From: a virus
IMG/VR virus record: IMGVR_UViG_3300045977_000235
Coordinates: 39,466 to 103,465 of that record
Strand: one strand, 5' to 3'
Length of the DNA stretch: 64,000 nt
Positions 7,998 through 53,418 of this stretch are shown here, one piece after another. Position numbers and translations under genes: made by a program. The notes under the pieces are model-generated. The model was not told the origin of the DNA. It was given only the letters and a program-made list of their open reading frames with translations, and did not search any database. Numbering within the stretch: the first letter of the stretch is position 1; each line of letters starts with the position of its first letter.

Positions 7998-8224
7998 TGT
8001 TTGCTTTTCCTCTATTTGTCGTTACCGTATACGCAAGTCTGCTCTTTTACTACTTCCATATGCAATGTATGCATTCTCGTTTCATAGTAAATATTCATAT
8101 GCATAATAGCGGCATATGACAGTACTACAAAAAGAGCAAGTACACTTGTCTTGATAGCAAATAGCATTTTGTTTTCCTTGTGTAGTGAGAGCATAGCAAG
8201 CAAGTACTATGCTCTCAGATTAAA

Positions 8225-11067: not shown

Positions 11068-11409
11068 TCTCTTTCCCCTATGAAACGAGAGCACACAAGC
11101 GTATTGTGTAGTGTGCTCTCAGAATACCGTTTTTTCGTCCTACAATACGCCAAATTTCGATTTGTTTTCCAAGGTAGTGTGTTTATACATCTTGAGAAAA
11201 CAAATCGTTTTTAGGGCAAAACAGAGCATAAAGTAAAAAAGACTCGTTACACTCAAGACAGAGCAACAAATTTGCTGCATCTACTATTGTGCAAGTATCA
11301 TCTGTTACTGCTTGCTTGCAATTATCACAAAAGCTTTTGATTGTCATATGATGCTACTCCTAAAAAATAAAGAGAGCACAGTATCATACTGTGCTCTCGT
11401 ATTGTTTAC

Positions 11410-12768
11410 TTATTTGTTGAGCTTTGCAATTTTATCATAACAGACTTTCAAGTCTGCTACATAGTCCAGAGTACCATCTTTGGACTTTTCAAAATTGATA
11501 AGCATAAGCAAAACATTTTGCAAGCCAACACTTGCTCTTGCTCTTACTACGTTTGTATTAGCAGACATAAGCAAAGCTTTTACTGCGGGATCTTTCTCTT
11601 TAGAGAAGTCTGTACCTAAAGATACTGGCGTATCAGACCTTGGCGTACTTGATACAGTACCTTTATTTGTTGGTGCATTGTTAGGAGTAGCAGGTACATT
11701 GCTTGTGCTAGCAGGTACATTGTTTGTACTTGCTGGCTTGCTAGTACTTGCTTGTGACTTGCTTGTGCCAGTGTTAGCAGTACTAGCAGATCCCTTCGGT
11801 CTGCCTCTTGTACTGCCTTGTGTGCCAGTACCTTGTTTTGGTGCTTTGTTGCCGTTTTTAATGATTTGCTGTGCTAGTGCATCATTCTGTACTTTAGTCT
11901 CTTGTGTAGTGCTATTGTTGCCGTACTTCTTACCTGTCGCAACAATACTCTGAGCAGTAGTAGCACTAATAAGACCTTTCTCTACTGCCTCTACTACCTC
12001 TGGTGTAGCTTGTAACAAGCTAAGCTTTTGTGTAACCCAAGGTGCAGTTTTGCCCATTTTGCTAGCTATATCTGCTTGAGTCCATTTATGCTCTTTAATC
12101 AAGCAAGCAATACACTCTGCAATTTCCATTGCTTCTAATGATTTGCCTTGATTGCTTGTAAGATTTGCAAACAAGAGCTTGTCTCTTGCTGTATCCTTGT
12201 CTGCATACATAGCAGGTAAACCATTGATAGCAAAACCATCTGCTATCAATTCTCTTGCTGCTTGTAAACGTCTGTGACCTTCGGTCAAGTACAGAGTAAA
12301 TGCACCGTTTACTGTATCTGCATATACCTTGATAGGAGGAAGATTCGCAGTACCGTTTACCTTGATATAATCTTTCAAGTCTTGCAAATCAAGGTTTTTT
12401 CTAGGATTAATACCTGCAATTGTTTGTACTTTGTTAGGATCGACAAGGAAAGCGTCTAAAGATTGCAAGATACCATTAGACTCTGGCGTAGTGGTAACAG
12501 TAGACTTGCTTGCTTTTGGTGTCTTTACTTTAGGCATTGTAGCAGTATCCTCTTGAGTAGTGGTAACAGTCTCTTGCACCGTAACAGTAGACTTGTTAGC
12601 TTTAGGCGTTTTTGGTGTCTTATTTGCTGGTATGGTAGCAGTATCCTCTTGTGCAATGATAGACTTTGTTTGACCGTTTACTGTAATCGTAGCAGACTTG
12701 AGAGCAGTATCCTCTTGTACGTTGTTAGTAACGATAGACACACTAGCAGACTTTTTAACTTTAGGCAT
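11410..12768 (-). CDS. ParB/Spo0J-family protein (ParB N-terminal CTPase-like domain plus HTH) with repetitive basic tails
   Basis: NPR..DL..L...I...G...PPI.V...L..GHRRL.A arginine patch; N..QGK.L...E.A; WTQADIASKMGKTAPWVTQKLSLL HTH; V.KG.IS...A. Confidence 0.85.
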   Translation of the reverse strand: MPKVKKSASVSIVTNNVQEDTALKSATITVNGQTKSIIAQEDTATIPANKTPKTPKANKSTVTVQETVTTTQEDTATMPKVKTPKASKSTVTTTPESNGILQSLDAFLVDPNKVQTIAGINPRKNLDLQDLKDYIKVNGTANLPPIKVYADTVNGAFTLYLTEGHRRLQAARELIADGFAINGLPAMYADKDTARDKLLFANLTSNQGKSLEAMEIAECIACLIKEHKWTQADIASKMGKTAPWVTQKLSLLQATPEVVEAVEKGLISATTAQSIVATGKKYGNNSTTQETKVQNDALAQQIIKNGNKAPKQGTGTQGSTRGRPKGSASTANTGTSKSQASTSKPASTNNVPASTSNVPATPNNAPTNKGTVSSTPRSDTPVSLGTDFSKEKDPAVKALLMSANTNVVRARASVGLQNVLLMLINFEKSKDGTLDYVADLKVCYDKIAKLNK

Positions 12769-12859
12769 TGCTTCTATATCCTTGTGAGTAGTGAGAGCAT
12801 AACACTATGCTATGCTCTCTTGATTAAATTATTTAATCCCTAGCAGATGGACAGTAGTT

Positions 12860-14649: not shown

Positions 14650-15619
14650 TATGCTCTTTCCTATCGGATTAAATTATTTAATCTGAGAGCATACCAGAGT
14701 ATTGCCTTGTACTCTTTAAACAAGCTTTGTCTTTACTCACAGTAAAGTCTGGCGATTCGTAGCACGTGCTACAGATTTGCTTGTAAAGTATGCTCTCTTT
14801 CCAGAGTACAGTAGAGTGCTACCACTACTCTTTAACAAGCTTTGCGATACTCGCAAGTATCGCTTGGTGATCCATAGCATGTAACATGCTACAGTTTTGC
14901 TTGTACCTTGTACTCTGTAATGCTCTGCACTATAGACTTGCAATCTATAATTGTTGCATTACAAGCAATACCTAAGTCTTATTGTGTGCTTAGTTAATAC
15001 CTCTCTATACTAGCATGGTATATATTGCTTGTGCTCTGCAATGTACAGAGTCCAGATAGACAAGAGGTATAGTCTTACAAGGTAAGTTTTGTTTACAAGA
15101 GAGCATACCTTAGTATGCTGCATAACAAGTAAACAATGTTTGCTCTGCTATTGTCTCTTATCATCTGCTTTTATTTTTTCATCTTGTCTCAAGTACACAA
15201 TATATATACGCTCTTATCATGGCGTATGCTCTTATCATTCGCAAGAGTGTACTTCTATAGTCTTACTTGTTACTCGTATCAATGCACCGTTTACTTTATC
15301 AATATGCTATGTTTGCTTATGCAATCTTATAGACTTACTTATTGATAGGCTTTCCATATGCGTATGCTTTTTAGCTAGCGTCTTATATGATACTTTGCAA
15401 TGCTATAGGCTGTTATGGTTTGGCGTACCAGAGGATAGTATTGCATTGTGTTTTACAATGTTATCTATCCTGCTAGGGTTATCTTAGGCTAACCCTTAGT
15501 TTTACCTGCTAGCATACCTCATGCTGTTACTGGCTCTACTGCTTGAGTACCCTACCAAGTCTCAAGTATGCCTCTACATCTACCGTATGCCTGCTATTTG
15601 GTTTTAAAAGAGCAAAAAA

Positions 15620-15649
15620 ATTGTAACAAGTTTATCGGAATTAAAGCAA
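15620..15649 (-). promoter_or_regulatory. Possible sigma70 promoter facing the early block
   Basis: TTGCTT-18-TACAAT on the - strand. Confidence 0.35.
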
Positions 15650-15770
15650 GCAAACTTTAACTGTATTTTTTTTCAATATGTTATGCGGATTAAATTATTT
15701 AATCCGCTATATTCTGGCGTGTTTTCTAGGCTTTCCTCCTATGTACCCAAAGGTACGCGCTTGCATATGT

Positions 15771-15786
15771 TGCAAAGTGTATGCCA
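15771..15786 (-). promoter_or_regulatory. Sigma54-type -24/-12 element
   Basis: TGGCATACACTTTGCA vs consensus TGGCACG-N4-TTGCW, exact GG-N10-GC spacing. Confidence 0.55.
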
Positions 15787-15854
15787 AACTATGGCATTAT
15801 TGATACTCGTTTCTCATTGTGTGCATTTTTTCTGTTTTGCCCTATATCGTAGTC

Positions 15855-15870
15855 TGGCATACTTTTTGCT
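15855..15870 (+). promoter_or_regulatory. Sigma54-type -24/-12 element
   Basis: TGGCATACTTTTTGCT. Confidence 0.5.
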
Positions 15871-16050
15871 TGTGCGTTTTGCCCTATCGAATGCCGTTTT
15901 TTGGTGTCTGTAAAGCTCTATACTGCGTTTTGATGGTAAGACGTGCTACCATACTGGCATATGCCGAAAAATTGAAAATAGAGAAAGCATACGCATCTTG
16001 ACTAGCAAGTATGCCATATTGTAATTTTTTCCTCTCAAGTCTGCATAGTC

Positions 16051-16066
16051 TGGCATACTTTATGCT
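16051..16066 (+). promoter_or_regulatory. Sigma54-type -24/-12 element
   Basis: TGGCATACTTTATGCT. Confidence 0.4.
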
Positions 16067-16189
16067 GCGTAAAAAAATTGCATTATTGATATTTTTTATC
16101 ATTCCTCTGCTAACAATAGATCATAGTCACAGCCTATTAAAAACAGACTTTTTCATAGAAAAAATTCATAAAAAAATTTTACGAATTTT

Positions 16190-17010
16190 ACCTTGTACTG
16201 TCGTTTACATCCTATGCATAACGTTTACACCATACGATAAATGTATGCTTTCATCTGTTTTTATCCTCTCTTATTCTACTGTTATCCTCTAATGTCTGCT
16301 TTTATCCTCTATCGTATGCTTTTATCGTATAACGTATACGATAGTATGCAATCGTATACTTTTGACGGATTAAATAATTTAATCGTTTACATTTTGCGTG
16401 TTACGTATACGAAAAGATCCATCTGTAAACTTTATTATCATAAAGTTTACAGTCTGGCAGAGTGCAGACTGTTAGCTAAGGTCTTAACAATCTTATAGCT
16501 AATCACCTATCGACTTCGGCCATGATTAAATAATTTAATCTTTCTCATTGTGAGATACTTTTCAAAAATGAAAATGAGAATCAAAAAGATTAAATAATTT
16601 AATCGCCTATTAAAGATCTTTAAGACCTCATAGTGAGTACATAAAAAATAATAAGACCGCAACAATAGACTTATAAAGACCGTAGAAATATTGGTATACG
16701 CCTATATGGTCCTTAGACGTATAGCTATATATACATATTGCTGCGGTCTTTATTAAAGAATTTAATCGTGTCAAAATTTTGACACGTCAAAAATTTTACA
16801 CCTGTTAGAATTTTGACAATAAAGACCTTGTTTTTACGTCATTTTTTTGACATGGGGGTTGCGCGTGCGTGCGCGTGTGACGTGTGTGCGAGAGGGATAT
16901 GTGAGAAAAGAGAAGGTCTTTGGTGGGAGTGTGTGTATTTTTGGTGAGTGTATAGGAAATTTTATAGAGATATATGTATATAGTATATACATATATACAT
17001 ATATCTGTGT
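16190..17010. repeat. Right non-coding motif array mirroring 2640-3570
   Basis: CGTTTACA/CGTATACG repeats, TAGCTAAGGTC, CTATATGGTCCTT, AAAATGAGAATC, four TGTCA-N6-TGACA-like boxes at 16769-16852, four 15-bp palindromes. Confidence 0.7.
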
Positions 17011-25221: not shown

Positions 25222-25707
25222 TCACCAATATTGTAATGCATCCTTCGGTGGAGGAAACAATATGTATCCTGTTGTTCGTTCTACATATTCAGCTATAGCT
25301 TTTTTAATATGATGTCGTGATGATTCTTTTGTGGTCGGGCAAAAAATACGGAGAAAATATTCTTTATAGAGTTTTTCTTTATCTCCTTTGTTTTTAAAGA
25401 AAGCATTCATTGCATCGTGTCCTGTCAATTTACGTATCCAATATTTCTTTTTGTATACTAATATCACTCCACGAAAATGTAATCCTTTCTCTATAAAATA
25501 TGGATCTTTTGCACACCAACCTGCAATACATCCTTTGTCATTATGTGGATTATACCACATACCGAAGTGAAGTTTATCATCAGGAATTTGATCATATACC
25601 CTTACAAGATTCAACCATTTTTCAATATCAGGCATATGATTAAACATAGGGTTTCCTTTATAACTTGGATAGACTTCTACCATACCATCTCTATACACAA
25701 TAATCAC
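25222..25707 (-). CDS. Hypothetical protein
   Basis: GCIAGW motif; packed ORF. Confidence 0.5.
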   Translation of the reverse strand: MIIVYRDGMVEVYPSYKGNPMFNHMPDIEKWLNLVRVYDQIPDDKLHFGMWYNPHNDKGCIAGWCAKDPYFIEKGLHFRGVILVYKKKYWIRKLTGHDAMNAFFKNKGDKEKLYKEYFLRIFCPTTKESSRHHIKKAIAEYVERTTGYILFPPPKDALQYW

Positions 25708-26220
25708 AGTATATTTTCTGCAAGAACTACCTGCTCATTTTCCATAAAAGAAACTACGTACCCATGTCCTTCTTCTTTATTTAATGAAACAGCATTATAG
25801 GTACGTAGTTTATCCCCTGCATACACATCTTGTATTTTTAAAAAGAGTCTATTTTTATAATAAAAATAATCTCCCCGTTTTAAATCTTTCATTGTCATAT
25901 ATTATCCTTTATCTATAACAAGATCCAAGGGGTAACTATCATCTTCTAATAGTTCCCCTTCATATTCAAGTTCATCTACAAGAACATTTAACAAATGTCG
26001 GAGTTCTTCTATGATACTTAGGATTCGTTCTTTCTTATTCATTGTTACTCCTTTAAAGTAAATTCTATTTGTATCTTATCACGTTCATCATCATATTGTA
26101 TATGCATACCATCAATGTGTTTGCCAAACCATTTTTCTAAATAGCGTTGAAGTATATCAGTATATGAAACAGTCGTACACAGGGTATTGTATCTATCATA
26201 GTCAGTCATTGATATATGTC

Positions 26221-26484
26221 CTAATAGTAAATAGGGAACTGTCTTTCTATTTTATCCAGTTCATTCAATCGTATAAATTCTTCATTTAAGCATTGTTGTT
26301 TCTGTTGCCATTGTTCCCCATTAATTTCTTCAGATTCAAAGTACAGCATTGTACCATTCATGAAAGATAGTACAGTGCCAGCATCAAACTTTGCTGGTTT
26401 ACCTCCCCAACACGTATAGAATCCTACATAGGGAACTTCTTCTACCATATCTAAATAGTCTGTAAAACTAATTCTTTTCATCAC
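26221..26484 (-). CDS. Hypothetical protein, paralog family D
   Basis: I...Y.D.....P..G.Y.C..G.PAK..A..V..FMNG shared with 29638-29883. Confidence 0.6.
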   Translation of the reverse strand: MMKRISFTDYLDMVEEVPYVGFYTCWGGKPAKFDAGTVLSFMNGTMLYFESEEINGEQWQQKQQCLNEEFIRLNELDKIERQFPIYY

Positions 26485-35792: not shown

Positions 35793-36146
35793 CTACATGA
35801 AAGAAAAGATTGTAACTGGATGCGGCCAAGGGGTTATCCATTCGGTAACATCTGCTAATGCATATAAAATTCCCCCGATAACAATTAGCTTATGGAGTTT
35901 ATTATTCACCATAAATCGTCCTGACCAATAATTCGTATTGTGATTAAATCCTAATTTCTCTATATATTTTATTATTGTTTCTCTTTCTGTTTCATTTATA
36001 CCATCATGAATATAAATATGAAACGTTATGTATGTCGGACTTACTTTGACTGTCACATCTAATTGTTCACTTTTTGCAACAACAAGATATTTTGATCCGG
36101 TTTTTCCTACAACAGTATCATACATGCTGTGTGTATTTTTGTCCAT
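35793..36146 (-). CDS. Hypothetical protein in the PPDK-like module
   Basis: GAGGG RBS; G.TGS.Y.VVA pattern. Confidence 0.55.
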   Translation of the reverse strand: MDKNTHSMYDTVVGKTGSKYLVVAKSEQLDVTVKVSPTYITFHIYIHDGINETERETIIKYIEKLGFNHNTNYWSGRFMVNNKLHKLIVIGGILYALADVTEWITPWPHPVTIFSFM

Positions 36147-36633
36147 ACCCTCTCCATTTCCATTCTTCTTTTTCTTTTACTTGTTCATAGTCTAACGGAT
36201 AGACTTCTAAACCATACTCCATAAGGAATCTATATTGTACCGTTGTCTCTACTGCCTTATGACAATATCTCTCTCTTAAAGTATACAAGCTTAACTTGTC
36301 TTTTGTCAACTGAAATAAAAGAATAGAAAGAAATAATCCTGTTCTCCCATGTCCACCAAGACATCCTACAAATATAGGGCATCCTTCAGTCACAAAGATA
36401 GCAGCTTTTTCTAAACATTGATTAAATAATTTAATATTCTGTGGTACACCAAAGTTTGGTATATGGTGTACCGTGATATAAGGGGTACGTGGAGTTTTTA
36501 TCGCTCCATCTAAAAAGAAATAATGATCTGCTATACCTCTTGGTACATCAAAGATTGAACCTCCGTGTATAGCAGTATCATTAATCATAAAAACTGGATG
36601 TTTACATCTTTCTTTTTTCAACGAGAACCTCAT
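36118..36633 (-). CDS. Cys-dependent protein tyrosine/dual-specificity phosphatase
   Basis: IPNFGVP; VGCLGGHGRTG (CX5R); AVET..Q. Confidence 0.85.
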   Translation of the reverse strand: MRFSLKKERCKHPVFMINDTAIHGGSIFDVPRGIADHYFFLDGAIKTPRTPYITVHHIPNFGVPQNIKLFNQCLEKAAIFVTEGCPIFVGCLGGHGRTGLFLSILLFQLTKDKLSLYTLRERYCHKAVETTVQYRFLMEYGLEVYPLDYEQVKEKEEWKWRGYGQKYTQHV

Positions 36634-37540
36634 TTACCAAAGGAAATGGTAGATACGTAAGTTTACCCTCTAACTTCACAGCAATAAGATCTTTCAGCAT
36701 CTTATATTTCAGTAGATACATTTCATCATTCTCTACAGCTAATGGAAACATCTTTTCATAGTCCATCAATTTTTCATAGGTTTTATTTGCATATATTTGT
36801 TTAAATATATTCTCTGAATACTTCAACAAAACAGGTAATTTTCCTTCATGTTGAATATCTAATAGGGCTTTAAAGAATGGTCTGCTTGGTTCAAATACTA
36901 TACCTTTGTTAAAAATGTCTGATGTATTATGCTCCAGGTTGAAACATAAGTCCACAAACATTTCTGTCGTGAGTTTTCCTTTAAAATAATCTAAGGCAAA
37001 ATCTGTAATGGTTTTCCAGTTCTTTCCCCCGCATGACATACCGAAGCATCCACACACAAACAACTTTGATATAGATTGAAGCAATGTACTGATTGATAGC
37101 TGTGATGTTTTCAAAAACTTCACAGCTTGTTCAATAGATTTCAATGGACCTGTATTCCGTAAAGACATAATGACTGCTGCTGTTTCCTTGTTCTCTGGTA
37201 ATTGTGCCCATGCTTTGAAGTTAGGGTTCTTATTATACGCATGTCGTGTTTCTCGTAAACAAATGAATAAAAGATACACAACTATGTGCTCTGCAACTTC
37301 TAATGTCGTCTTAATATAATCATCTACTATACGTTGTTTTTCTTGTAGATCACCATATAAACCATAGAGACTTTCCAGAACGTTTACTGATTGATTGAGA
37401 TAGTAGAACGCAAACATATCTGCTTCTGGCGAACGTTTATGTTTCCCATAAAAATCATACCATTGATATAAACGTTCAGCCAGAACAGGATACATAAATG
37501 ATCTACGTACAGGTGATAAATACAGATCAATAACTGGCAT
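36602..37540 (-). CDS. Conserved hypothetical protein between two phosphatases
   Basis: 312 aa; motif-like ICLRETRH, GGKNW..I, D.CF.LEHN...IFNKG; AAGGA RBS. Confidence 0.65.
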   Translation of the reverse strand: MPVIDLYLSPVRRSFMYPVLAERLYQWYDFYGKHKRSPEADMFAFYYLNQSVNVLESLYGLYGDLQEKQRIVDDYIKTTLEVAEHIVVYLLFICLRETRHAYNKNPNFKAWAQLPENKETAAVIMSLRNTGPLKSIEQAVKFLKTSQLSISTLLQSISKLFVCGCFGMSCGGKNWKTITDFALDYFKGKLTTEMFVDLCFNLEHNTSDIFNKGIVFEPSRPFFKALLDIQHEGKLPVLLKYSENIFKQIYANKTYEKLMDYEKMFPLAVENDEMYLLKYKMLKDLIAVKLEGKLTYLPFPLVNEVLVEKRKM

Positions 37541-37551
37541 GATTTTTTTCC

Positions 37552-38061
37552 TTAGAATCTATTGACGAATGATTCTTGCTCTGGTGTTTCTATTGCACGC
37601 TTATCATACAACAAACGTACTTCTTGTATTGGGTTTTTACTCCCATGCATCTTGAGTAAACATGCAATGCTCATACCTGTTCGACCGTAACCACCTTTAC
37701 ATCCTATATACACAATTTTTTCTTTCTTCGCGTGACAATAGACCTCTGTTAATATATCCCTAAATGCACTCTTATCCCGTGGTACTTTAAAATCTGGTAT
37801 AGGGAACAACCAATCATCTGTATCATTATTCACATTATAATATTGTTCTTCTAAACATAATCCTCTGATATTGCTCGGTTTTTTATAAAATGGTCCTGCT
37901 AAAATAATATAGGGATTCGGAGCATCAACAATAATTCCTTTTGATGAAAACAAATGCAAATCATCAAAGGATGGAACACACTTGATTTCATCTCGTTGTA
38001 CTGGTACTTCTACTGTATTCCATTGAAAGAAACGATTAAATAATTTAATCCAGCTAAACAT
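37552..38061 (-). CDS. Cys-dependent protein tyrosine/dual-specificity phosphatase
   Basis: PIPDF.VP; IGCKGGYGRTG (CX5R); AIET.EQ..FV; AGGAGAG RBS before MFSW. Confidence 0.85.
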   Translation of the reverse strand: MFSWIKLFNRFFQWNTVEVPVQRDEIKCVPSFDDLHLFSSKGIIVDAPNPYIILAGPFYKKPSNIRGLCLEEQYYNVNNDTDDWLFPIPDFKVPRDKSAFRDILTEVYCHAKKEKIVYIGCKGGYGRTGMSIACLLKMHGSKNPIQEVRLLYDKRAIETPEQESFVNRF

Positions 38062-38365
38062 AATTCTCTCTCCTAATGGGAACGTTCTTATATGCACTGA
38101 TAAACACATGAGCAATAGATGATGTTGTACGTTTTCCTATCCACATAAACACAGGGGATAGAAGTTCACTATAAAAAGGTAATTCATGATTTTGTTTGAG
38201 TATAATAACTCCTTCTTTATTTTGTGCGGAGTATGTTAAAGCACAGGTATAATGCTTCTTTGCCCAATTATGACGTATTTCTGTTACCGTAAATTTTACA
38301 TCTCCTACAAAAAAAGAATCATTAACAGGTAAACATATTCCTAGTGTTCCGAATGTATGTGACAT
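38054..38365 (-). CDS. Hypothetical protein
   Basis: AAGGA RBS; ends A...VPI.RE (CsrA-like tail, weak). Confidence 0.5.
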   Translation of the reverse strand: MSHTFGTLGICLPVNDSFFVGDVKFTVTEIRHNWAKKHYTCALTYSAQNKEGVIILKQNHELPFYSELLSPVFMWIGKRTTSSIAHVFISAYKNVPIRRENYV

Positions 38366-38378
38366 ATATGCATCCTTT

Positions 38379-40190
38379 TTATAATGTTGTTTCTATCATC
38401 TCCTTCAACAATTCATCATGAGTAAATATAATATTTTTATCTGCATATGTTACATCTTTTGCTCCTATAAAAGTATAATAGTTTTCAAGATATTTGTCAA
38501 TCACTTCTTGATCAACAAACTTGAGATAGTAGGAATGTATGTTATCTGCCCGTTGAACATAATAAGTACGCATGACCTTTTGTAGTGGTTTTATTCTTTT
38601 ACAAAATTCATCATAAGGAAACATAAACCATGATGGATCTAATATAACGTTCTTACCTACCATCTCTAATGGAATATACGGATTCACTAACACAAACGGA
38701 TCTTTAAAGTGTGAAAAGATATACGTCCATATAGAATCTATCTTTTTCAACAAAGCCGCATCTTTTACTATCTTCCCTTTTCCTTTATATAATCTATCAT
38801 GTGTTGTGTCTAATGATACAGGTTCACCTTCAAGAAAATATAGATCACCCATATTCAATGAAGGTTTAATAGGATCAAAAGTAGCATCAATATTTAATAA
38901 ACAGGGTTTTTGTAAACTCCGCGCTAATACAGCAGCATGAGATGTTACACCACCTGTTAAAGCAATGATACCTTTACATTTTAATAGAGCAGGTATCATT
39001 TCTGTTGTCGTATATTCTGTACAATAAATTGAATCTTCTGTACAGTTATCAAGATTAAATGTTAATCGTCCTACAGCAACACCATTACATGCACTTTTCC
39101 CTTGGAGAAAAGGTGTATCTTTAGGGATATTTAATTTATTCATATCCAACATAAAATCTTGAAGTGTTAAATTCTTTAATGGTATACGATTTTTCTTCAA
39201 GATGATGTTTTCATACAACATCGTGATTTTTGTGCTTGATGGAATTTTTGCATCACGTGTTTGTAAGAAATATAATTTCTTATTGTACACTGTCCATTCA
39301 ATATCCTGTGGATATTTGTAATGATTTTCTATTTTCTTAGCATTCGTGCGTAATGCTTCATATAACCGTGTACCCATTATTGCAGTAAGATCTATTGGCG
39401 TCATATGACCTGAAACAATATCTTCACCTTGAGCATTACGAATAAACTCTCCTTGTATTGCATCAGAACCTGTTTCAAGATTCGATGAAAACATAACACC
39501 TGTAGCACCTTCAGAACTATTACCAAATACCATTTCTTGTATAACAACACCAGTACCTATATCTTGTAGATGATTGTATTTTCTATAAGCATCTGCTTCT
39601 GGTGAATCCCAAGATTCCCATACAGCTTTAATAGCATAAAATAATTGACTCCCTAGATCGAGCATTTCAGGAGTCTTTTGCTTGTGGCCTTCATATTCTG
39701 CTTTAAGATTTTTCAATGATTGTACAGGATTATCATACACATAGGTACTATGGAGAGGAAGTCCTAAGACAATCTCTCCAAACATTTTCCTAAAACGAAA
39801 GAGAGAATTAAAAGCTGTTTCATCCCCTAATTGTTCCATCCATCCTTTGAAATTTTGTACAGTTAATCCTACGTTTAAAATGGTACTCATAAGTCCAGGC
39901 ATTGAATATGGAGCACCAGAACGTACAGAGACTAATTTCTTCTCAAAGTATGGTACAAGTACCTGCTTAATCACATCTACTAACCGTAGCTCTGCTTGTG
40001 TTTTATCTTTTTTATAGAGTCGGCAAAAATTTGTCGGCAACACAACAAAGAAAGGAACATTAATACCTTCAATAGACTTCAGTCCAAAAAGATTACTCCC
40101 TTTATTCCCGAAGATTTGTTTATGATATTGTACAGGAAGTTCTTTATATTTTGGATCATTACTTTTATAGAAAAAATGTGTCTTAAACAT
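38379..40190 (-). CDS. Pyruvate phosphate dikinase-like protein (ATP-grasp plus phospho-His swivel domain, no pyruvate-binding barrel)
   Basis: GNKG.NL; LVSVRSGA..SMPG.M.T.LN.G; QEMVFGN; TGV.F; GE....AQGED.VSG; DIEWT...LY.LQTR; GG.TSHAAV.AR. Confidence 0.88.
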   Translation of the reverse strand: MFKTHFFYKSNDPKYKELPVQYHKQIFGNKGSNLFGLKSIEGINVPFFVVLPTNFCRLYKKDKTQAELRLVDVIKQVLVPYFEKKLVSVRSGAPYSMPGLMSTILNVGLTVQNFKGWMEQLGDETAFNSLFRFRKMFGEIVLGLPLHSTYVYDNPVQSLKNLKAEYEGHKQKTPEMLDLGSQLFYAIKAVWESWDSPEADAYRKYNHLQDIGTGVVIQEMVFGNSSEGATGVMFSSNLETGSDAIQGEFIRNAQGEDIVSGHMTPIDLTAIMGTRLYEALRTNAKKIENHYKYPQDIEWTVYNKKLYFLQTRDAKIPSSTKITMLYENIILKKNRIPLKNLTLQDFMLDMNKLNIPKDTPFLQGKSACNGVAVGRLTFNLDNCTEDSIYCTEYTTTEMIPALLKCKGIIALTGGVTSHAAVLARSLQKPCLLNIDATFDPIKPSLNMGDLYFLEGEPVSLDTTHDRLYKGKGKIVKDAALLKKIDSIWTYIFSHFKDPFVLVNPYIPLEMVGKNVILDPSWFMFPYDEFCKRIKPLQKVMRTYYVQRADNIHSYYLKFVDQEVIDKYLENYYTFIGAKDVTYADKNIIFTHDELLKEMIETTL

Positions 40191-40199
40191 TTGTATCCT

Positions 40200-40781
40200 C
40201 TAATCTCCTATAATAGATCTAACTTTTTGCACACGATTTTCTAATGTATCCCAAGGAACAAAGTATATAGGATCATTTTGTCGTAAAATTGCCTTATTAT
40301 TGTAACTAATAATAAAATCATAATAAAGTATCTGTAATGCATAGATAACAGATTGATCTGTAATTCGTATGGAATCTTTTTCTTCTTCTACAACAGGTGG
40401 AGATTCAATATAAAACAAATAATCATATGTTTTTAATGACCTATATACTTTCCGTTGATACATTTTATAGGTGTCTTGTGATACTACTGATGCACAACGG
40501 AATATGGTATGAAGAAAGACATCAAGTAACGTTCTATCAGATATAAACTCTCGTAATTCCTTTTCTTCTTCTATACGATAGGTAAACATATGATGCTGAC
40601 ACTTATAAATATCTTCTATTGGCCTTTCAAGAAAATCATCATTCGTATGAAAACCATGTTCTGCTGCTATCTTTCTTGCACAACTCGGTAAAAATGGACT
40701 ATTAACTATTTTATTCTCAACTAAGTATTGTGCTAATGTTGTTTTCCCACATGCAGATAACCCCATGAACCCTATCTTCAT
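40200..40781 (-). CDS. P-loop nucleotide kinase (AAA_28/dNMP kinase-like)
   Basis: IGFMGLSACGKTT; ISDRT.LD; YDYLFY. Confidence 0.7.
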   Translation of the reverse strand: MKIGFMGLSACGKTTLAQYLVENKIVNSPFLPSCARKIAAEHGFHTNDDFLERPIEDIYKCQHHMFTYRIEEEKELREFISDRTLLDVFLHTIFRCASVVSQDTYKMYQRKVYRSLKTYDYLFYIESPPVVEEEKDSIRITDQSVIYALQILYYDFIISYNNKAILRQNDPIYFVPWDTLENRVQKVRSIIGD

Positions 40782-42682: not shown

Positions 42683-43027
42683 TTAATAGCATCTCCTTTC
42701 GTATCTATAATGCATATGACACCAACCTACTCTATTATTTGTGCAACGTCTTTGTGGAGCATATACAATTGGCGGTTGTACATACACATAAGCACCACCA
42801 CGATATACACGTTGTCTTTCTCTATTGTGCCTATGTCCATGATGTCTATGTTGGTGTGCGTGTCTTTTATTTCTTCCATGCCAATGTGGATGTGAACCAT
42901 GTGCTAATGTAATTTCTACATTCTGTGCTTCTGCACGATTAATTAAAGTAGGTACTCCAAGAGACACACACCACATTAATAACCCACATCCAATAATTTT
43001 AATCAGGTTCATCTGGTTCTTCTTCAT
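42683..43027 (-). CDS. Exported His/Arg/Pro-rich small protein
   Basis: Signal peptide ...AEA; HQHRHHGHRH; YVQPPIVYAP. Confidence 0.55.
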   Translation of the reverse strand: MKKNQMNLIKIIGCGLLMWCVSLGVPTLINRAEAQNVEITLAHGSHPHWHGRNKRHAHQHRHHGHRHNRERQRVYRGGAYVYVQPPIVYAPQRRCTNNRVGWCHMHYRYERRCY

Positions 43028-43990
43028 AAGGTTTTTCCTTTACTGATAAAACTTCTACGGTTGTTTCATACATATCTTCTTGATCTATGGCACTAAAAAA
43101 TTTGCCATCAAGATACTGCATGACAAGATCCTTTGCTTCTTCTTCTGTTTCACAATCAACAGTAAAAGCGGTTTTAATAATTTCTTGAATATGAACTATG
43201 AACATAACTATCTCCTTTTAGTTAGGTACACATTGTTGTAACCAATGAGAATCAGTAGGACCATTAGGCTCTGCGGCATAAAAACCTATAGTCATATCAA
43301 TACGTGGATTTTTAAAAAACTTATAGTATCTTGCACATGTACCATTGTCAAAAATATATGGTGTAAAAGAATATTTATCTGGAAAGCATTTATTCAAAGT
43401 AAGAAGATAATGAATAACATTCGTTGTACACGTCATAAGATCTTCACCAACAGCATACACCACATAATTTGTAGGACTTAACTGTAACTGATGTTCATTC
43501 CTACCAACTACAACTGCTTCATAATATTTGAAAATCATGTGTTTCCTTTGTGGGCATTTGTAGATGCCCACTTTTAATTAAATAATTTAATCTTTCTATC
43601 GTGGTAAGGTTTGGATTAATTGTAGTACGGCTAACAATACTACAGGAACCCATAAAGGACACCAATTAGCAGCAGATAACGCTGCTAATATTAACGCAAG
43701 AATCGCTAAAACTACACTAACTGTAAGCACCATGTTATCCCCCTATACACCATTCGTAAATGGTTCTTCATGTATACCATCTAACAAAACACCTAAATTA
43801 AGTTTATCTCCCCATTTCGTATACAGGTTATCCAATTCACACACAAAAACCCCATCATGAACAACAACTAACCCTTCATAACACACGTATACTCCATCAG
43901 GAATATGTACTTCTTGTCCTGGTACGTAACACATACTATGTGCATCAACTTTTATTTGACACCCATTTTCACCATAGACATCATAATTCA

Positions 43991-44443
43991 TTAATCACAT
44001 CTCCTATAAGTACGATAACCATACCAGTTTCCATATCTATCATATTGTCGTTGACGATGTGTATAACATCGTCGATAACGATATGAAGGTGGAGTTACGT
44101 ACACAGGTGGAGCAGGTTGTACATATACAGGTGGAGTAGTAATTGTTACAGGAGCAGGAGTCACAGAGACATTACCATATGGATCTACTGCTGCAACACA
44201 TCCACCTACTAATAATCCAATACCTATCATTAAACCAGCAATACTCTTTTTCATATTACAATCCTTGTCATTTGCAATAACATAGACTTTTGATAAATCA
44301 ACTCCCCCGCACCGAATATAATCAGACCCTCCATCCACAAATGTCTGATTTTGACATGAACATTGGTGAAAATCATGCCTATGTTTTGACTCTAAAATTT
44401 CTCCACATTCTAAACATTGTACTTTACTCATACCAATATCCAC
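43991..44443 (-). CDS. Zn-ribbon domain fused in frame to a small Pro-rich lipoprotein
   Basis: C..CG..LES.HRHDF..C.C....VDGG.DY.R, then an internal AAGGA RBS + MKKS...LVGGC lipobox at 44254. Confidence 0.6.
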   Translation of the reverse strand: MDIGMSKVQCLECGEILESKHRHDFHQCSCQNQTFVDGGSDYIRCGGVDLSKVYVIANDKDCNMKKSIAGLMIGIGLLVGGCVAAVDPYGNVSVTPAPVTITTPPVYVQPAPPVYVTPPSYRYRRCYTHRQRQYDRYGNWYGYRTYRRCD

Positions 44444-45153
44444 TTGTTTTTTTCAAGTATCTCTATTGTTACAGGACACATGTTTGCTTCTTTCACTTCT
44501 TCTAGCATCAATTGAGCTACTGTATGTATTTCTTCTTGTGCATGGGCTGAATTTCGTAACATTTGATAATTCGCAAATGAACGAAGATTCATTGTTGTTA
44601 CACGTTCTGTCATATTATTCTGTGGCAATACTCCTCTATAAAATTCTCTCAGTCTTTTATACTGAGTGTTTGTAATCAAACCCATTTTTTCATGTTGTTT
44701 CATACGTTCTAAACACGTTCTATATAAATCATTTGCACGTCCACAGATGTATTCATACTCTCCTATTAAATCATCTTCATAACAATCATAGAATACATTC
44801 AAAATATCCTCTGGCATTTTGAGCCATTCATTAGGCATGGTTCTATATCGTCCACTCATACCATTATGAGATGCTATCCTATGTGTCATGTGTTGTCTAT
44901 CTGTGCTTATAGGAATTTTCATCCAGAAACGAAAGACAACACTTTCAAAAGGACTACCATGTACGTGTCCTACATCTTCTAATGTTTGTATTGGACGTGT
45001 AAGCACTTCTGTTAAGATTCTTTTTACATCTTCATCTGTACGTTTTTCTTTTCCTTGTAATGTTGTACTTGAAGTCCATGCACTTTCAGCAATTGCCCTA
45101 TCATCACCTAGCCAACCTTGTAATTCAACATGTATCTGGCCTTTATTCCTCAT
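44428..45153 (-). CDS. thyX: Flavin-dependent thymidylate synthase
   Basis: H.SPFE...F.F; RQ...HR..S.N..S.RY; LR...HAQ.EI. Confidence 0.88.
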   Translation of the reverse strand: MRNKGQIHVELQGWLGDDRAIAESAWTSSTTLQGKEKRTDEDVKRILTEVLTRPIQTLEDVGHVHGSPFESVVFRFWMKIPISTDRQHMTHRIASHNGMSGRYRTMPNEWLKMPEDILNVFYDCYEDDLIGEYEYICGRANDLYRTCLERMKQHEKMGLITNTQYKRLREFYRGVLPQNNMTERVTTMNLRSFANYQMLRNSAHAQEEIHTVAQLMLEEVKEANMCPVTIEILEKNKWILV

Positions 45154-45171
45154 AATTCACCTATGATTAAA

Positions 45172-45651
45172 TTATTTTTGACTATGCACGACATTTGCTG
45201 ATTCATAAATATAGACATTCTTAGGAAGTGTATCAGTATAGACTTTGACAAGATCACGTTCAAGTAAACCGTATCCAATCCCTGGAAAGTTTACCACAAC
45301 ACGATTGTAATGTCCAGCAATCTTCTGAAGGAGTTTACAAGAGTATTCAATAAGAGGCAAACTCGAAGGCTGTTGATAATTCTTCTTTGTTTGAAAAATC
45401 CCTATATGTTTTCCTTCAATCTCTGTAATAATCAAAACCCCATATTCACCTAAATGTCCACACACTTCACGTACTAATTGTCCTGCTTCAAAAGCAATAT
45501 GCGGATATTTTTTTGCTAATCTTCCTGCTGCTCCTACTCCCATCACCAATGAACCATCTTGTTTTATACATGAGTTTGCGGTAACAAGAAATAAATCAGC
45601 CAAACCTAATTCATTAAACATTTCACCTGTAAGATACTCAGGCATTTTCAT
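45172..45651 (-). CDS. Macrodomain-like (ADP-ribose-processing) protein
   Basis: VTAN..IK.DG.LVMG.G.A; FQTK; PGIG.G.L. Confidence 0.7.
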   Translation of the reverse strand: MKMPEYLTGEMFNELGLADLFLVTANSCIKQDGSLVMGVGAAGRLAKKYPHIAFEAGQLVREVCGHLGEYGVLIITEIEGKHIGIFQTKKNYQQPSSLPLIEYSCKLLQKIAGHYNRVVVNFPGIGYGLLERDLVKVYTDTLPKNVYIYESANVVHSQK

Positions 45652-46300
45652 ATCCTTCTAGTTCTGTTATTTCAATCAACATATGAGGATATTTTTGTGT
45701 CAATATTTGCAACACATCGTCTAATGGTGTTTCATCAATTAAATTATTTAATTTTTTCTCTTTATGATACTCCTGTTTCTCTACATTTGTTTTTAATAAA
45801 TACTCTAATACTTCATAGAGATATGCAAATTTATGTGCATATTTAATCGCTTCTAATTGTCCATGTATTTTTTCGTATTTTTGTAAAGGAACATAAATTA
45901 TAGCTTTTTGTCTCTGAATAATTTGTGTTTTTTCTTGATCATTAATATATTGTTTATAATTTTTTGTAGATAAATTTTGTGCTGCTTGAAGCATATCATC
46001 TTTATTATGCTGTGTAATATACCGCATAAATGCTTTAATGCGCCACCAAGGTACATCTTTTAAATCACGAAATTTTATACCAAGATGTGAACACATTTTA
46101 TATAAATTAATGTATGAAGTAACATCTTTTGTATTTAAATTTGGATATTCTCTTTGTAAATATACCCAAAAATTACTATGTTTATCTTTATACACTTTTC
46201 TTTCCTTTATATCATATAAGTATGCTCCTAATCGTATTTTGTTTTCTAAATCAATATCAATATATTTTTGAATCATTTCTGGAGTTACTGTACTTTCCAT
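45638..46300 (-). CDS. Hypothetical protein, possibly DNA-binding
   Basis: LG..L..IKE...Y......F..Y...E pattern. Confidence 0.5.
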   Translation of the reverse strand: MESTVTPEMIQKYIDIDLENKIRLGAYLYDIKERKVYKDKHSNFWVYLQREYPNLNTKDVTSYINLYKMCSHLGIKFRDLKDVPWWRIKAFMRYITQHNKDDMLQAAQNLSTKNYKQYINDQEKTQIIQRQKAIIYVPLQKYEKIHGQLEAIKYAHKFAYLYEVLEYLLKTNVEKQEYHKEKKLNNLIDETPLDDVLQILTQKYPHMLIEITELEGYENA

Positions 46301-46785
46301 ATTTTATCCTGTACAGAATATTTCCACGGACTACTTTTGTTCTGTAAATAATGTACTCCTGTTATTGCTATACCTAATGCATCTCGTAAGTGTTCATTAG
46401 GTAATAACAAATTCCATGTTGTTTTTAGTCCCATTGCGACATCTTTTTTTGTGGCTCTCCCATTACCCGTAATAAACTTCTTCATTGTCAATGGAGCAAC
46501 TATATATAACGGACACCAATCATACAAATACTCTCGTAATAAAATATTGATTGTTGCTAAAAGTTCTAGCACGTTTTTATTAGGTGATCCCCATGAAATA
46601 CCTTCCATAAAGATTGCTGTGACTTTATAATCTTGTGCTATCCATTGACATTGTGTAGCGAGCATCCTTGCTCCTACTAATCCTTTTTTCTCTATATCAT
46701 ACAATTCAGTATATCTTATCTGCAAGTTCTCATTGAGAACAACTATACCTGTATGCGTGCTAGGATCAATACCCATAATAATCAT
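46285..46785 (-). CDS. ruvC: RuvC-like Holliday junction resolvase
   Basis: MGIDPS...G; IFMEG; P.T.KKF.TGNG.A.K..V; DALGIA. Confidence 0.8.
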   Translation of the reverse strand: MIIMGIDPSTHTGIVVLNENLQIRYTELYDIEKKGLVGARMLATQCQWIAQDYKVTAIFMEGISWGSPNKNVLELLATINILLREYLYDWCPLYIVAPLTMKKFITGNGRATKKDVAMGLKTTWNLLLPNEHLRDALGIAITGVHYLQNKSSPWKYSVQDKIWKVQ

Positions 46786-46880
46786 CTATACCACATATAT
46801 AATAACATTATAACAAATACTAAACAACCATATTGTATAACTGTCATTATATCCCACAAAATATTTCCTATATACATTAT

Positions 46881-48272
46881 TTATACTACCTCTTGTGATT
46901 GTTGTTCTTCTATATCTGTTTGGCCTGAGTCTTTTACTAAACCCTCTCCTACAAGGAACGTATGGCTTTTAAATTTCCAGAAATGTGTTGAACCATTTTC
47001 TCTTTCTACTCTGAATACAACACCTTCCATATAATGAGAAGGATCTAATGGTTCTGGACGTTCTACAAATTCAGAAAAATCAGGCAAAACATCAGCAAAT
47101 GTCATATGATCTTTATAGGTTTCATGCCCAACAGTATACATCATAAATTCATGAACATGAGTAAGTTGAAGTTGTTCACATCGTTTCTTCACTAATGACC
47201 AAGGTACTTCATAGACTTCACCATCTTCATTCGTCCAAGTGATTCTATAAACGAGTAATTTTCTTTGATACGGGAAACATCCATACTTAAAGAACAATTT
47301 ATTCGCTTCATCAGTATTCGCTTTATATTGTTTTTGTATTTCCTTGGGCAATTTTTTTAATTCAACACTTGGCATAATAGGTTGATACGGACTAATAAAG
47401 CCTACGTGTTCATAATAAATTGTTTCGCCTTTATGCAATTTAATATCTTGTACGTCATCAAATCGAAATGATTCATCAGAATAATAACCCCTTGTCTTAC
47501 CCCTATCTGGAAATAAAAATGCAAGGAAGGGCAACCTCTGACTCAAAAAATGCCTATTCTGATAGGCTTCTGTAGTGCCTTTAATAACTCTCCGTGACCC
47601 TACCCAATGTTCATATCTTGGTTTTAATAGCCATGCTACCTTGTTCAACCATTTGTTCTTATATGGTGTACGATTGATACCTCTATGCAATCGTCCAGAA
47701 GTCCCATGTGCTTTTGCTGTAACATAAATCCTATCACCTATAGATACATGTTGATTCAAATGATACCTGAGATGATCTGTGTCTACATGTTCTAAAAATG
47801 TAGGGACTTGTGCTTTCCGTACAACTTTCTGTTTACCAGGAGTTGACGATTGTCTTACTGGTATCACATAACGATTACAGATTTCTGTACCATTAATAGC
47901 AGTAAATTGATACCCTAATGGTGCAGTTTCTAATATCTCATGTCCTTTACAATAGATTAAATAATTTAATCCACAGACGAATCCTTGACTCTTTATTCCC
48001 CGAAATGATTGTGCTCGTACACGTCTTTTTTCATCAAAATATCCACCACCTATTTTTGTCCCTGTTGCATCGTATCGTGCAATCAGATCGTTCTTTTCAC
48101 AGAACTCCTGTGAAAGCTGTACATCACAATCAAAGTATAATACACGATCTTCTACCTTTGCATCTAACCCAACAATAACTCGTTCACCTAATACTGTAGC
48201 AACTTGTAATCTATCAGCATTAGGATGTTTTTCAAGACGTGTTATGTGTGCTAATGTGCAAATACCCGACAC
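46881..48272 (-). CDS. RNA ligase with N-terminal OB/tRNA-binding-like domain (DRB0094-type)
   Basis: LEKHPNADRL.VA; VTAKAHGTS (KxxG); IYYE; EGVV.R; KFKS..FL. Confidence 0.75.
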   Translation of the reverse strand: MSGICTLAHITRLEKHPNADRLQVATVLGERVIVGLDAKVEDRVLYFDCDVQLSQEFCEKNDLIARYDATGTKIGGGYFDEKRRVRAQSFRGIKSQGFVCGLNYLIYCKGHEILETAPLGYQFTAINGTEICNRYVIPVRQSSTPGKQKVVRKAQVPTFLEHVDTDHLRYHLNQHVSIGDRIYVTAKAHGTSGRLHRGINRTPYKNKWLNKVAWLLKPRYEHWVGSRRVIKGTTEAYQNRHFLSQRLPFLAFLFPDRGKTRGYYSDESFRFDDVQDIKLHKGETIYYEHVGFISPYQPIMPSVELKKLPKEIQKQYKANTDEANKLFFKYGCFPYQRKLLVYRITWTNEDGEVYEVPWSLVKKRCEQLQLTHVHEFMMYTVGHETYKDHMTFADVLPDFSEFVERPEPLDPSHYMEGVVFRVERENGSTHFWKFKSHTFLVGEGLVKDSGQTDIEEQQSQEVV

Positions 48273-49099
48273 TTTTTTTCTCCTGTCACTTGAGTAATTT
48301 TTTTACCAGTTTTACAAAATCAACAATCGTAAATAACACTAACCAGCAAGCGATTGCTACCCACATCCATAAAAGATATGCAAATGAATGTTCATCACGA
48401 TACCTTTTAATAATATCTTGTAAGTCTGTTTTCTCTACTTCCACTTCCTTGAATATATCAGAAATAAGTGGTTTAGAATACACTAAAATAAATACAAACA
48501 TATACAGAACAACTAATATCCAAAACATTATGAACCCCTGTAATGTAAAGAAATTTTATCTGTTACTATGTAACACGTATCAAGTTCATGATCAAGTCGA
48601 ACAAGATGATTACCTGTTACTAATGAAATCATATGAATATATGGCATATCAATTTTAAACACTTTATATGCTAATGCCTTTGTTTCTGTTACATAGAGAA
48701 TAAAATCTCCAGGTACAACTTCTTTTCCTTCATTATCAAAAAACTTCTTTTTAGTCGGGGTTAAAATCATTGCTAAACCATACCTCTCCATTGACGTTAA
48801 ATTCGTCATAGATTGTTGTAAGATAGTCTCGCAAAATAAATAAATTGGCTTTTATCTGTGGATCTCCTGTCTCTAAAATATTCCGTTCTAATATTGGCAT
48901 ATCTTTAGCTGTCATAGTAATTGCACCACGAATAGGATACAACATTGCATGAGTTATAATGTGTGTTACATAATCATAGTACCCATACTGATATTTTTCC
49001 TCCACATAATCTAATACTTGTTTTGCATTATACACTATTACTTCTTTGCCCGTTGGTTTCTCCATAAGTATCCTAACATAATTAAATTATTTAATATAT

Positions 49100-49128
49100 A
49101 GTATACACCAAAAGGGGAGATTTGTCAA
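49100..49128 (-). promoter_or_regulatory. Sigma70-type promoter with the 15-bp palindrome over its start site
   Basis: TTGACA-17-TATACT, then 4 nt, then ATTAAATAATTTAAT (49081-49095). Confidence 0.8.
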
Positions 49129-49217
49129 GGATACACAAATACTCCCCATATAAGTAACCATCCTACAAATGTTGTTATTCCTACACACCACAGTCAAAAG
49201 AACCAATTACACACATA

Positions 49218-51791: not shown

Positions 51792-52503
51792 TATACTCTT
51801 GTTGTAATCGCTTACTTATTACTTCACAGTATTCTTTTTCTTTTTCAATAAGGATAAATTGTCTACCAAGATTTTTACATGCTACCCCTGTTGTTCCTGA
51901 GCCAGCACAGTTATCTAAAACTAGCTCACCTTCTTGTGTATACGTTTTCACAAGGTATTCACATAATTCTACAGGTTTTTGTGTAGGATGTAATTTACCT
52001 ATTTGAACAGCATTGGAGATATTTATTAAATTTTTAGGATAGTATTCATTTGATTTTATTTCGGATTTTGTAGGGATAACGTTATAATTATCACTTACAG
52101 TATATCCACCTTTATTTCTTGGTTTTCCGCGTATTTCCATTTGCGGATAATAGTTTACTTTCTGCAATCCAAACACTACAATATCTTCACAAATTTGAAA
52201 TGGACGTATTTTTGCTGTAACGAATCCAGCACTATTGTTTTTATTCCAAACCCAACAATGCCTATACATAGACAAGTTACTCATAACTAACATGCTTGTA
52301 AATGGCTGTGATGCATGTAAGACTATTGCTCCATGCTTTTTTATGATTCGTATATACTGCTTCCATAATAAAGTAAATGGAATAGGTATATCCCATTTAC
52401 ATGCAGTTGTTCCATAAGGTAAATCACACAATATCATATCTATACTGTTATTTTTTATACCCTCCATTACTTCTAAACAATCACCATGTAGTATTGTATG
52501 CAT
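51766..52503 (-). CDS. DNA N6-adenine/N4-cytosine methyltransferase (beta class), paralog of 20267-21037
   Basis: GDCLE...ILCDLPYGTTACKWD; HPTQKP; VLDNCAGSGTT. Confidence 0.9.
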   Translation of the reverse strand: MHTILHGDCLEVMEGIKNNSIDMILCDLPYGTTACKWDIPIPFTLLWKQYIRIIKKHGAIVLHASQPFTSMLVMSNLSMYRHCWVWNKNNSAGFVTAKIRPFQICEDIVVFGLQKVNYYPQMEIRGKPRNKGGYTVSDNYNVIPTKSEIKSNEYYPKNLINISNAVQIGKLHPTQKPVELCEYLVKTYTQEGELVLDNCAGSGTTGVACKNLGRQFILIEKEKEYCEVISKRLQQEYIEGKDFNV

Positions 52504-52504
52504 A

Positions 52505-53107: not shown

Positions 53108-53418
53108 TATATTCTCCTAATTAAATTATTTAATAAATGCGTACTGCATGTCTTTCTACAGATTTTCCTTGGATATATTGTCTATGCCATAATTCTACCC
53201 CTTGAGGCCATACAGTCTTAGTGACTGTTAGTATAGTGTAAGGCATTCGTTTATTCATTTCAAGCATGATATTATGTACAATATCTTCTCGTACATTAAT
53301 TATCCATATTTCTTGTTCTTTTAATATTGCATGGCCTTTAAAATATTGTTGAGCAAGAAACATTATATCAGGTGTCATAGGCAATGGAAGTATGACGTAT
53401 TTAACAAAAGGTGTCAAT

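Follow-up and report, generated by a model that had tools for sequence, protein, structure and literature searches.

The parB locus and its upstream palindrome

We analysed a 64,000-nt window (bases 39466-103465) of the 103,465-bp IMG/VR record IMGVR_UViG_3300045977_000235, which represents a single phage, with a focus on a ParB-like gene and on a short palindrome that recurs throughout the genome. The gene, hereafter parB (11410-12768 of the window, minus strand; positions are those of the window unless stated otherwise), encodes an orphan ParB/KorB/Noc-like protein of 452 amino acids, as judged from the translation of its open reading frame (ORF), Pfam, PDB and PHROG searches, and an AlphaFold2 (AF2) model compared using Foldseek. 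A 17-bp extended copy of the palindrome, GATTAAATTATTTAATC, had been reported 55 bp upstream of the start of this gene; we found it at 12822-12838, where it is separated by 21 nt from the preceding stop codon, that of the upstream gene, and by 53 nt from the ATG of parB. There is no copy within parB itself.

The 91-nt gap upstream of parB is predicted to fold strongly as RNA (-25.5 kcal/mol, z -3.4). Between the palindrome and the Shine-Dalgarno (SD) sequence of parB, it carries a minus-strand hairpin with a 12-bp stem (GAGAGCAUAGCA..., 12793-12819) and no U-tract. The gene is followed by an intrinsic terminator (11360-11399, minus strand), a 12-bp stem (GAGAGCACAGUA...) and then UUUAUUUUUU (-20.3 kcal/mol, z -4.4). 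These two hairpins and a third one at 8186-8217 have common outer arms (GAGAGCA...TGCTCTC) and different, compensated inner stems, and the hairpin upstream of parB is a member of this family of the early block. The palindrome copies at 8218 and 12822 each directly abut such a hairpin.

No recognisable promoter was found in the intercistronic gap upstream of parB, and the gene is therefore probably co-transcribed with the upstream genes. For this reason the palindrome copy before parB is not a classical autoregulatory operator, and it is not evidence of autoregulation. The presence of a copy at this place is not significant by itself, because 42 of the 52 exact copies in the genome are intergenic or at gene edges, versus about 190 gene junctions. 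Judging by the position of the gene, parB would be expressed early, as the initial annotation stated.

Domain architecture of the ParB protein

The ParB N-terminal fold with its GHRR motif, and the helix-turn-helix (HTH) domain, both first recognised from the sequence, are borne out by family and structure searches. The protein matches Pfam families HTH_ParB (E 7e-13) and KorB (E 9.5e-5), both above cut-offs, as well as PHROG 1033, 'ParB-like partition protein' (E 1.3e-33), and a PDB sequence search matched it to the solved structures of Spo0J, Noc, ParB and KorB. In the AF2 model, for which 86 homologues were used, residues 100-307 form a confidently predicted core (predicted local distance difference test, pLDDT, above 90), and Foldseek ranks Noc, KorB and CDP-bound ParB as its top matches (E 6e-10 to 1e-8). 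The Pfam family ParB_N does not reach the threshold of E 0.001 for this protein, yet it is matched by 51 of the 86 closest homologues. The absence of parA, noted initially for the window, extends to the entire 103-kb genome, where CbiA gave no match and AAA_31 only a sub-threshold P-loop match within a recA-like gene. The protein is thus a true orphan ParB/KorB/Noc-type protein, composed of a tail, a nucleotide-binding-type domain, an HTH, an AT-hook-bearing linker and, at the C-terminus, a domain that is predicted to dimerise.

The N-terminal tail (residues 1-95, 12484-12768, minus strand) is predicted to be disordered (pLDDT below 50) and contains three QEDTA...TPK...KSTVT repeats. The 5' end of parB is internally duplicated: the SD sequence and the start ATG-CCT-AAA-GT found at the annotated start codon occur again at Met78 (AAGAGGA, 8 nt, ATG). 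As the start is repeated in this way and the homologue P0007 begins near residue 95 of this ParB, a shorter isoform that lacks most of the K/T/P-rich tail is possible.

The following domain (residues ~100-205, 12154-12471, minus strand) is of the nucleotide-binding type, according to alignments with PDB entries and homologues, AF2 and Foldseek. Box I corresponds to N121-P-R123. Box II, the phosphate-binding GxRRxxA motif, corresponds to G164-H-R-R167-L-Q-A170, in which the GHRR residues 164-167 are encoded at 12268-12279; among the 86 homologues, G164 and R167 never vary and R166 occurs in 77. Box III reads S205-N206-Q-G208-K, so that the Glu of the canonical E-N-x-x-R motif (ENLQR) is replaced by Ser and the Arg is absent; SNxGK is found in box III throughout the orphan phage ParB-like family PHROG 1033. 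The 86 closest homologues show almost no variation at residues N121, R123, G164, R167, N206 and G208. By alignment, N206 plausibly corresponds to the hydrolysis Asn (N112 of ParB, N146 of KorB), the two HMMER alignments differing by a few residues.

The ParB-type HTH domain (residues 210-283, 11920-12141, minus strand; Pfam and alignments) includes the putative recognition helix GKTAPWVTQKLSLL, and the region around it, GKT(A/P)xW(V/I)(T/N)Q.LS, is common to all four members of the narrow clade. Downstream, a disordered linker (residues 310-385, pLDDT below 50) carries an AT-hook, TRGRPKGS (residues 320-327, 11788-11811, minus strand). The AT-hook is kept as RGRP(K/S)GSAST in three of the four narrow-clade ParB clusters (P0001/P0155/P0156, P0002/P0157 and P0008/P0158; 46-48% aligned identity), and is absent from P0007 and all the other fetched proteins (158 in total).

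The C-terminal helical domain (residues 387-451, 11416-11610, minus strand; pLDDT ~80) matches no Pfam family and is predicted to form a homodimer. The two-copy model of residues 380-452 has a score of 0.69, versus 0.00 for the best of three controls. Of 30 proteins solved as one-chain pairs, 20 reached that mark, as did one of 23 solved as single chains; these counts hold only roughly here since the model used its own four-row alignment. Model runs agree in at least 92% of contacts, with a partner pLDDT of at least 76.

The closer ParB homologues are encoded on contigs of 5-70 kb. ParB-based scans of viral, metagenome and genome contigs detected no locus of the ParB clade, and a scan by the SNF2 neighbour likewise detected none.

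A conserved palindrome dispersed over the genome

The initial annotation proposed that the ParB protein loads at dozens of sites. The exact 15-mer ATTAAATWATTTAAT occurs 52 times genome-wide versus ~0.005 times expected, and 68 sites are found if one mismatch is allowed; 52-68 sites correspond to about one per 1.5-2 kb. The window alone holds 64 matches with up to two mismatches (0.1 in shuffles), including a dispersed set of 36 exact 15-mers (574-62302), of which 12 are exact 17-mers. Nine of these 12 G...C-flanked 17-mers are located at 3.7-16.6 kb, in the early block and the adjoining non-coding DNA. Elsewhere, the 17-mer gave only single scattered chance matches in IMG/VR and GTDB genomes, and no bacterial genome is enriched in it, so that these matches point to neither a host regulon nor a host.

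We located one related uncultured phage, the sole phage relative found, via TerL and PolA (IMG/VR 3300045955_000166 and _000180, here G001 and G002; ~77% nucleotide identity). Its repeated unit is a 13-mer, with 35 copies in 69 kb. As the 13-mer is the unit repeated in the relative, and as the outermost base holds 11 of the 16 single mismatches in the phage studied here, the functional core is, judging from these comparisons, TTAAAT-W-ATTTAA (W being A or T), a 13-bp palindrome of 6-1-6 layout. The core is under purifying selection: about 22 of the ~32 assessable orthologous places in the relative keep it, intragenic ones included, versus ~5% expected from background identity. The central base flips freely between A and T in the two phages.

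Both arms of the palindrome are strictly conserved, and variants with two mismatches are compensated in only one of 11 cases. The RNA hairpin that the palindrome could form has a folding energy of only -3 kcal/mol. Reading the palindrome as an RNA hairpin was rejected on account of this weak fold and the lack of covariation. The essentially absent compensatory changes and the weak hairpin argue instead for recognition by a protein, and the observations together point to a duplex-DNA site recognised sequence-specifically by a symmetric dimer, with selection on whole-genome coverage.

Four copies are clustered within 400 bp of non-coding DNA (16368-16767), namely exact 17-mers at 16368, 16524 and 16588 and a two-mismatch copy at 16751. 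They are part of a non-coding region of ~2 kb (15000-17000) with five to six palindrome copies and TATA-rich repeats, in which TTGACA-containing words are repeated at 16750-16850 and a GC-rich tract, GCGCGTGCGTGCGCGTGTGACG, is found at 16860-16890. It could represent an origin, one end of the genome or an array of early promoters.

Placement of the sites relative to genes

The genome is ~91% coding, based on a crude ORF call, yet 42 of the 52 exact copies are found between genes or at gene edges. About 24 copies follow the arrangement stop codon (often the TAA of the motif itself), motif, 0-8 nt, SD and ATG. The ten other copies are deep inside genes, where they are read as IKLFN or LNNL(I/M), and these intragenic copies occupy the largest gaps between intergenic ones; the resulting drop in the coefficient of variation (CV) of spacing exceeds that of 99.4% of random placements (p 0.006). 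Overall, the CV of spacing is 0.71, versus 0.97 for random placement (p 0.007). Such a genome-wide, gap-filling and selectively conserved distribution fits a factor that loads and spreads.

The position of so many copies just ahead of genes could also indicate a cis-acting expression signal independent of ParB, either a promoter element for a modified host RNA polymerase (RNAP) or a signal for mRNA translation or processing upstream of the ribosome-binding site. The ~24 copies directly followed by an SD and a start codon, and the preference for intergenic positions in a densely coding genome, would be explained by it, and each half of the palindrome resembles a -10 box or a box of the T4 late type (TTTAAT, ATTAAATA). 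However, neither a promoter nor a single-stranded RNA signal needs strict symmetry of two arms around an unoriented W centre, and the lack of compensatory covariation and the weak hairpin speak against a structured RNA. No conserved -35 element or other oriented flank was found, a transcription start ~7 nt past the motif would remove the conserved SD sequences, and no phage sigma factor or RNAP family was detected in the ORFs scanned, among the matches listed. Moreover, the four clustered copies in non-coding DNA have no downstream genes, and the intragenic copies fill spacing gaps. In a packed genome, a 15-bp all-AT word is most cheaply accommodated between genes, and as this word contains TAA and the gaps are short, packing is the simplest explanation for the nearness of the copies to SD sequences. 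We therefore regard a dedicated expression signal as unlikely.

Two copies are linked to consensus sigma70 promoters, TTGACA-17-TATAAT (genome 32553-32598) and TTGACA-17-TATACT (window 49081-49123), where the palindrome begins 3-4 nt downstream and covers the start. A general sigma70-promoter reading was rejected: these are only two of 68 sites, and neither is kept in the relative.

ParB as candidate reader of the palindrome

Pfam searches of ~143 non-structural ORFs and PHROG searches of 58 early or plus-strand ORFs detected no other HTH, ribbon-helix-helix, sigma or RNAP family among the matches listed (the best 25 families for two of the Pfam sets). On these sequence comparisons, ParB appears to be the sole recognisable sequence-specific DNA-binding protein among the ~143 non-structural ORFs. 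HTH dimers of the ParB family read palindromes of 13-16 bp, some of them odd-centred, and the AT-hook suits the 9-bp A/T centre of the all-A/T candidate target. By elimination and fit, ParB is thus the best candidate reader of TTAAAT-W-ATTTAA, an assignment that we make tentatively and that falls somewhat short of an even chance. The related uncultured phage keeps the palindrome and gave no ParB match. This is not evidence against the pairing because its contigs lack the early block entirely; the contig breaks fall exactly around the block that bears parB.

Some related orphan ParBs are encoded by named phages. The ParB of Agrobacterium phage Milano (gp051) is 32-35% identical over the core and has a Trp at the same position of the recognition helix. 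Milano contains seven copies of TACAAATnATTTGTA, which share with the phage studied here the 7-1-7 layout and the AAATnATTT centre. These copies (record 42972-54423) are found 3-15 kb downstream of its Noc/ParB-like gene, before small genes, between the -35 (TTGAC) and the -10 (TATAag) of sigma70-type promoters. Temporal control is described as unknown for the phage group of Milano in the genome paper of phage 7-7-1 (PMC3517404). The common layout, centre and helix Trp are suggestive of a ParB pairing. Xylophilus phage Lumi, which has an orphan ParB and no ParA, carries sites of 7-1-7 layout as well: three copies of TTACTAGnCTAGTAA, two of them 27 bp apart, are found in its terminal repeat, at record 1277-2171 and again at 81773-82667.

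Several observations weigh against ParB as the reader of the palindrome or against its action as a nucleotide-dependent clamp. Of ten named phages that encode related orphan ParBs, eight carry no palindrome in at least three copies and Lumi, also among the ten, has only three unique sites, so the lattice of palindromes is not a family-wide trait. In Milano, the sites are inside promoters and a separate regulator is annotated nearby. In the phage studied here, the ~24 sites that abut an SD sequence and the two at the +1 of consensus sigma70 promoters would suit a dedicated expression signal too. No family could be recognised for more than half of the ORFs, and the reader could therefore be an unrecognised small DNA-binding protein or a host factor. 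Finally, CTP-clamp behaviour is uncertain for this ParB because S-N-x-G-K takes the place of E-N-x-x-R in box III, without the Glu and the Arg of canonical CTPase ParBs. ParB folds can bind ATP or GTP too (PMC12704722).

We thus considered that the palindrome is read by another factor, such as a small DNA-binding protein of the phage that went unrecognised, or a transcription factor or nucleoid protein of the host, while ParB acts at a few other sites, binds AT-rich DNA non-specifically via its AT-hook or acts on host DNA. Most early ORFs are ORFans without a family match, which leaves room for such a factor, and the lack of a lattice in most named phages with related orphan ParBs, as well as the annotated regulator within the motif-bearing region of Milano, point in the same direction. 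Fur-family boxes, too, typically have a 7-1-7 layout. However, no other sequence-specific DNA-binding domain was found among the matches listed, the 17-mer is not enriched in any bacterial genome, and an AT-hook specific to this clade suits an all-AT target. A different reader is in our view rather doubtful.

Genome content and related hypotheses

The genome has a G+C content of 34% and its closest DNA polymerase match is only 37% identical; no named phage is close. The virion genes encode TerL, TerS, portal, protease, major head protein, tape measure protein and a J-like central fibre. The genes for replication and nucleotide metabolism encode a family-A DNA polymerase (PolA), a ribonucleotide reductase (RNR), an SNF2 helicase, RecA, DnaB, primase, ThyX and RuvC, and further genes encode two DNA methylases, an RNA ligase, kinases and phosphatases. 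Among the Pfam matches listed for the ~143 non-structural ORFs, there was no integrase or repressor family. From this content, including PolA, RNR, RecA, DnaB and primase, the phage looks virulent, with no sign of lysogeny.

Membership of the ParB family raises the question of whether the protein is the centromere-binding half of a partition system that maintains a plasmid-like carrier state, and the four sites within 400 bp resemble a parS cluster. The genome, however, has no ParA, on which ground this reading was rejected. In addition, no ParA-interaction motif (LG[KR]GL type) is seen in the N-terminal tail, the sites are genome-wide rather than in one centromere, and the virulent-looking gene content, with no integrase or repressor family among the matches listed for the scanned ORFs, does not suggest a carrier state. 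A role in partition is very improbable.

Next to polA, we observed a group of genes (35793-40781) that encode a P-loop kinase, two PTP-type phosphatases and a 603-aa protein (PHROG 18609, 'kinase'). ThyX, a dCTP deaminase-like gene and a dCMP deaminase are located elsewhere. These genes may constitute a nucleotide or DNA-modification module, though there is no TET/JBP gene in the genome. Phage ParBs that activate thymine dioxygenases (5mYOX) have been described (PMC13229309), and the kinase and phosphatase genes beside polA would be in line with a similar role for this ParB. This reading was rejected as Tet_JBP (PF12851) has no match at E<=1 in the genome. Furthermore, the 5mYOX-associated ParBs are reported to have no obvious DNA-binding domain (PMC13229309), whereas the ParB studied here has a clear HTH. 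Activation of a dioxygenase is barely conceivable for it.

The first 127 bases of the genome are repeated at 102526-102652, and the relative spans both ends of the record: one of its two contigs corresponds to genome 60.8-103.5 kb plus 1-25.8 kb (the other to 29.0-42.3 kb), with the ends of the record crossed at 25585-26351 of G001. Circular permutation or terminal redundancy is therefore the probable state of the record, and not the 76%-complete fragment that CheckV estimates.

A possible mechanism and its implications

If ParB reads the palindrome, a dimer held together at the C-terminus would place its two HTHs on the two half-sites of 6-7 bp, and would prefer the candidate target TTAAATWATTTAA over scrambled AT-rich DNA. 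The AT-hook would occupy the minor groove where the A/T tract forms the centre of the site. Nucleotide-dependent closure of the N-terminal domains around the DNA may follow, and ParB would spread a limited distance from each site. With sites every 1.5-2 kb, the whole phage chromosome, and nothing else, would be marked or coated. The likely outcome would be KorB-like transcriptional silencing or insulation, or shielding of the phage DNA. Both the nucleotide-dependent sliding and the physiological outcome are steps that we infer. The model in its full form, in which ParB dimers load at ~60 evenly spaced palindromes as CTP clamps, cover the chromosome and distinguish phage from host DNA, a form of self-marking, is not probable on present evidence, although it deserves serious consideration.

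If the model is correct, it would represent a plasmid-style clamp network that operates genome-wide during lytic development. It would provide a concrete and testable function for orphan phage ParBs, the marking or silencing of the whole genome in lytic growth, and would explain the selection on a 15-bp word even within essential genes. The combination of an AT-hook and an HTH on an all-AT site of 6-1-6 layout would be a new mode of recognition in the ParB family. In the literature, we found nothing relevant on a ParB with an AT-hook or on a phage palindrome lattice.

Comparison with known systems

Orphan ParB homologues are widespread in phages and without characterised roles (survey PMC12704722). 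Most of those in PHROG 1033 lack the AT-hook, long tail and C-terminal domain of the clade described here.

The canonical ParB-parS system, exemplified by Spo0J, has the same fold, GxRRxxA motif, HTH and C-terminal dimerisation domain. It differs from the system described here in having a ParA partner, an N-terminal ParA-binding motif, ENLQR in box III and a 16-bp parS that is clustered near the origin.

The closest partner-less relatives are Noc and VirB. Noc of Bacillus subtilis, the best structural and sequence match of this ParB, is likewise an orphan ParB paralogue without ParA that has many palindromes dispersed over the chromosome. Noc is targeted to the membrane by an N-terminal helix and functions in selecting the division site, whereas this ParB has a disordered K/T/P-rich tail, and the Noc-binding site (NBS) is an even-length, GC-centred palindrome, in contrast to the odd, all-A/T palindrome of the phage. 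The VirB site is a near-palindrome of 7-nt boxes around one central base. VirB, encoded on the Shigella virulence plasmid, is likewise a partner-less regulator of the ParB family acting on AT-rich DNA, and binds CTP (PMC10653881). Its action opposes the silencing exerted by a nucleoid protein, and an outcome of this kind is conceivable in the phage too. VirB differs in having few sites, all at specific virulence promoters, and its sequence relationship to this ParB is distant.

The closest described system is KorB with its OB operators on the IncP-1 plasmid RK2. RK2 additionally encodes IncC, a ParA partner, and KorA, which locks the clamp, while the phage genome has no ParA. The system described here also differs in its 52-68 all-A/T sites, in the AT-hook, in its replicon, a phage with no lysogeny genes found as opposed to a plasmid, and in a box III without Glu and Arg. 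The initial annotation proposed a KorB/OB- or Noc/NBS-like system. The ParB identity, orphan status and site of that proposal all hold, and the KorB operator is the right analogy for the 13-bp core; the loading and spreading that it added remain conditional, as set out above. KorB is likewise a ParB fold with a KorB/ParB HTH, and its operator is a 13-bp palindrome of 6-1-6 layout with a degenerate centre (TTTAGC-S-GCTAAA versus TTAAAT-W-ATTTAA in the phage) (PMC11790492). As in the phage, the KorB operators are dispersed over the replicon, at promoters and away from them. Both proteins have GxRR and a box-III Asn; that of KorB (N146), the plausible counterpart of N206, is required for CTP hydrolysis (PMC11790492).

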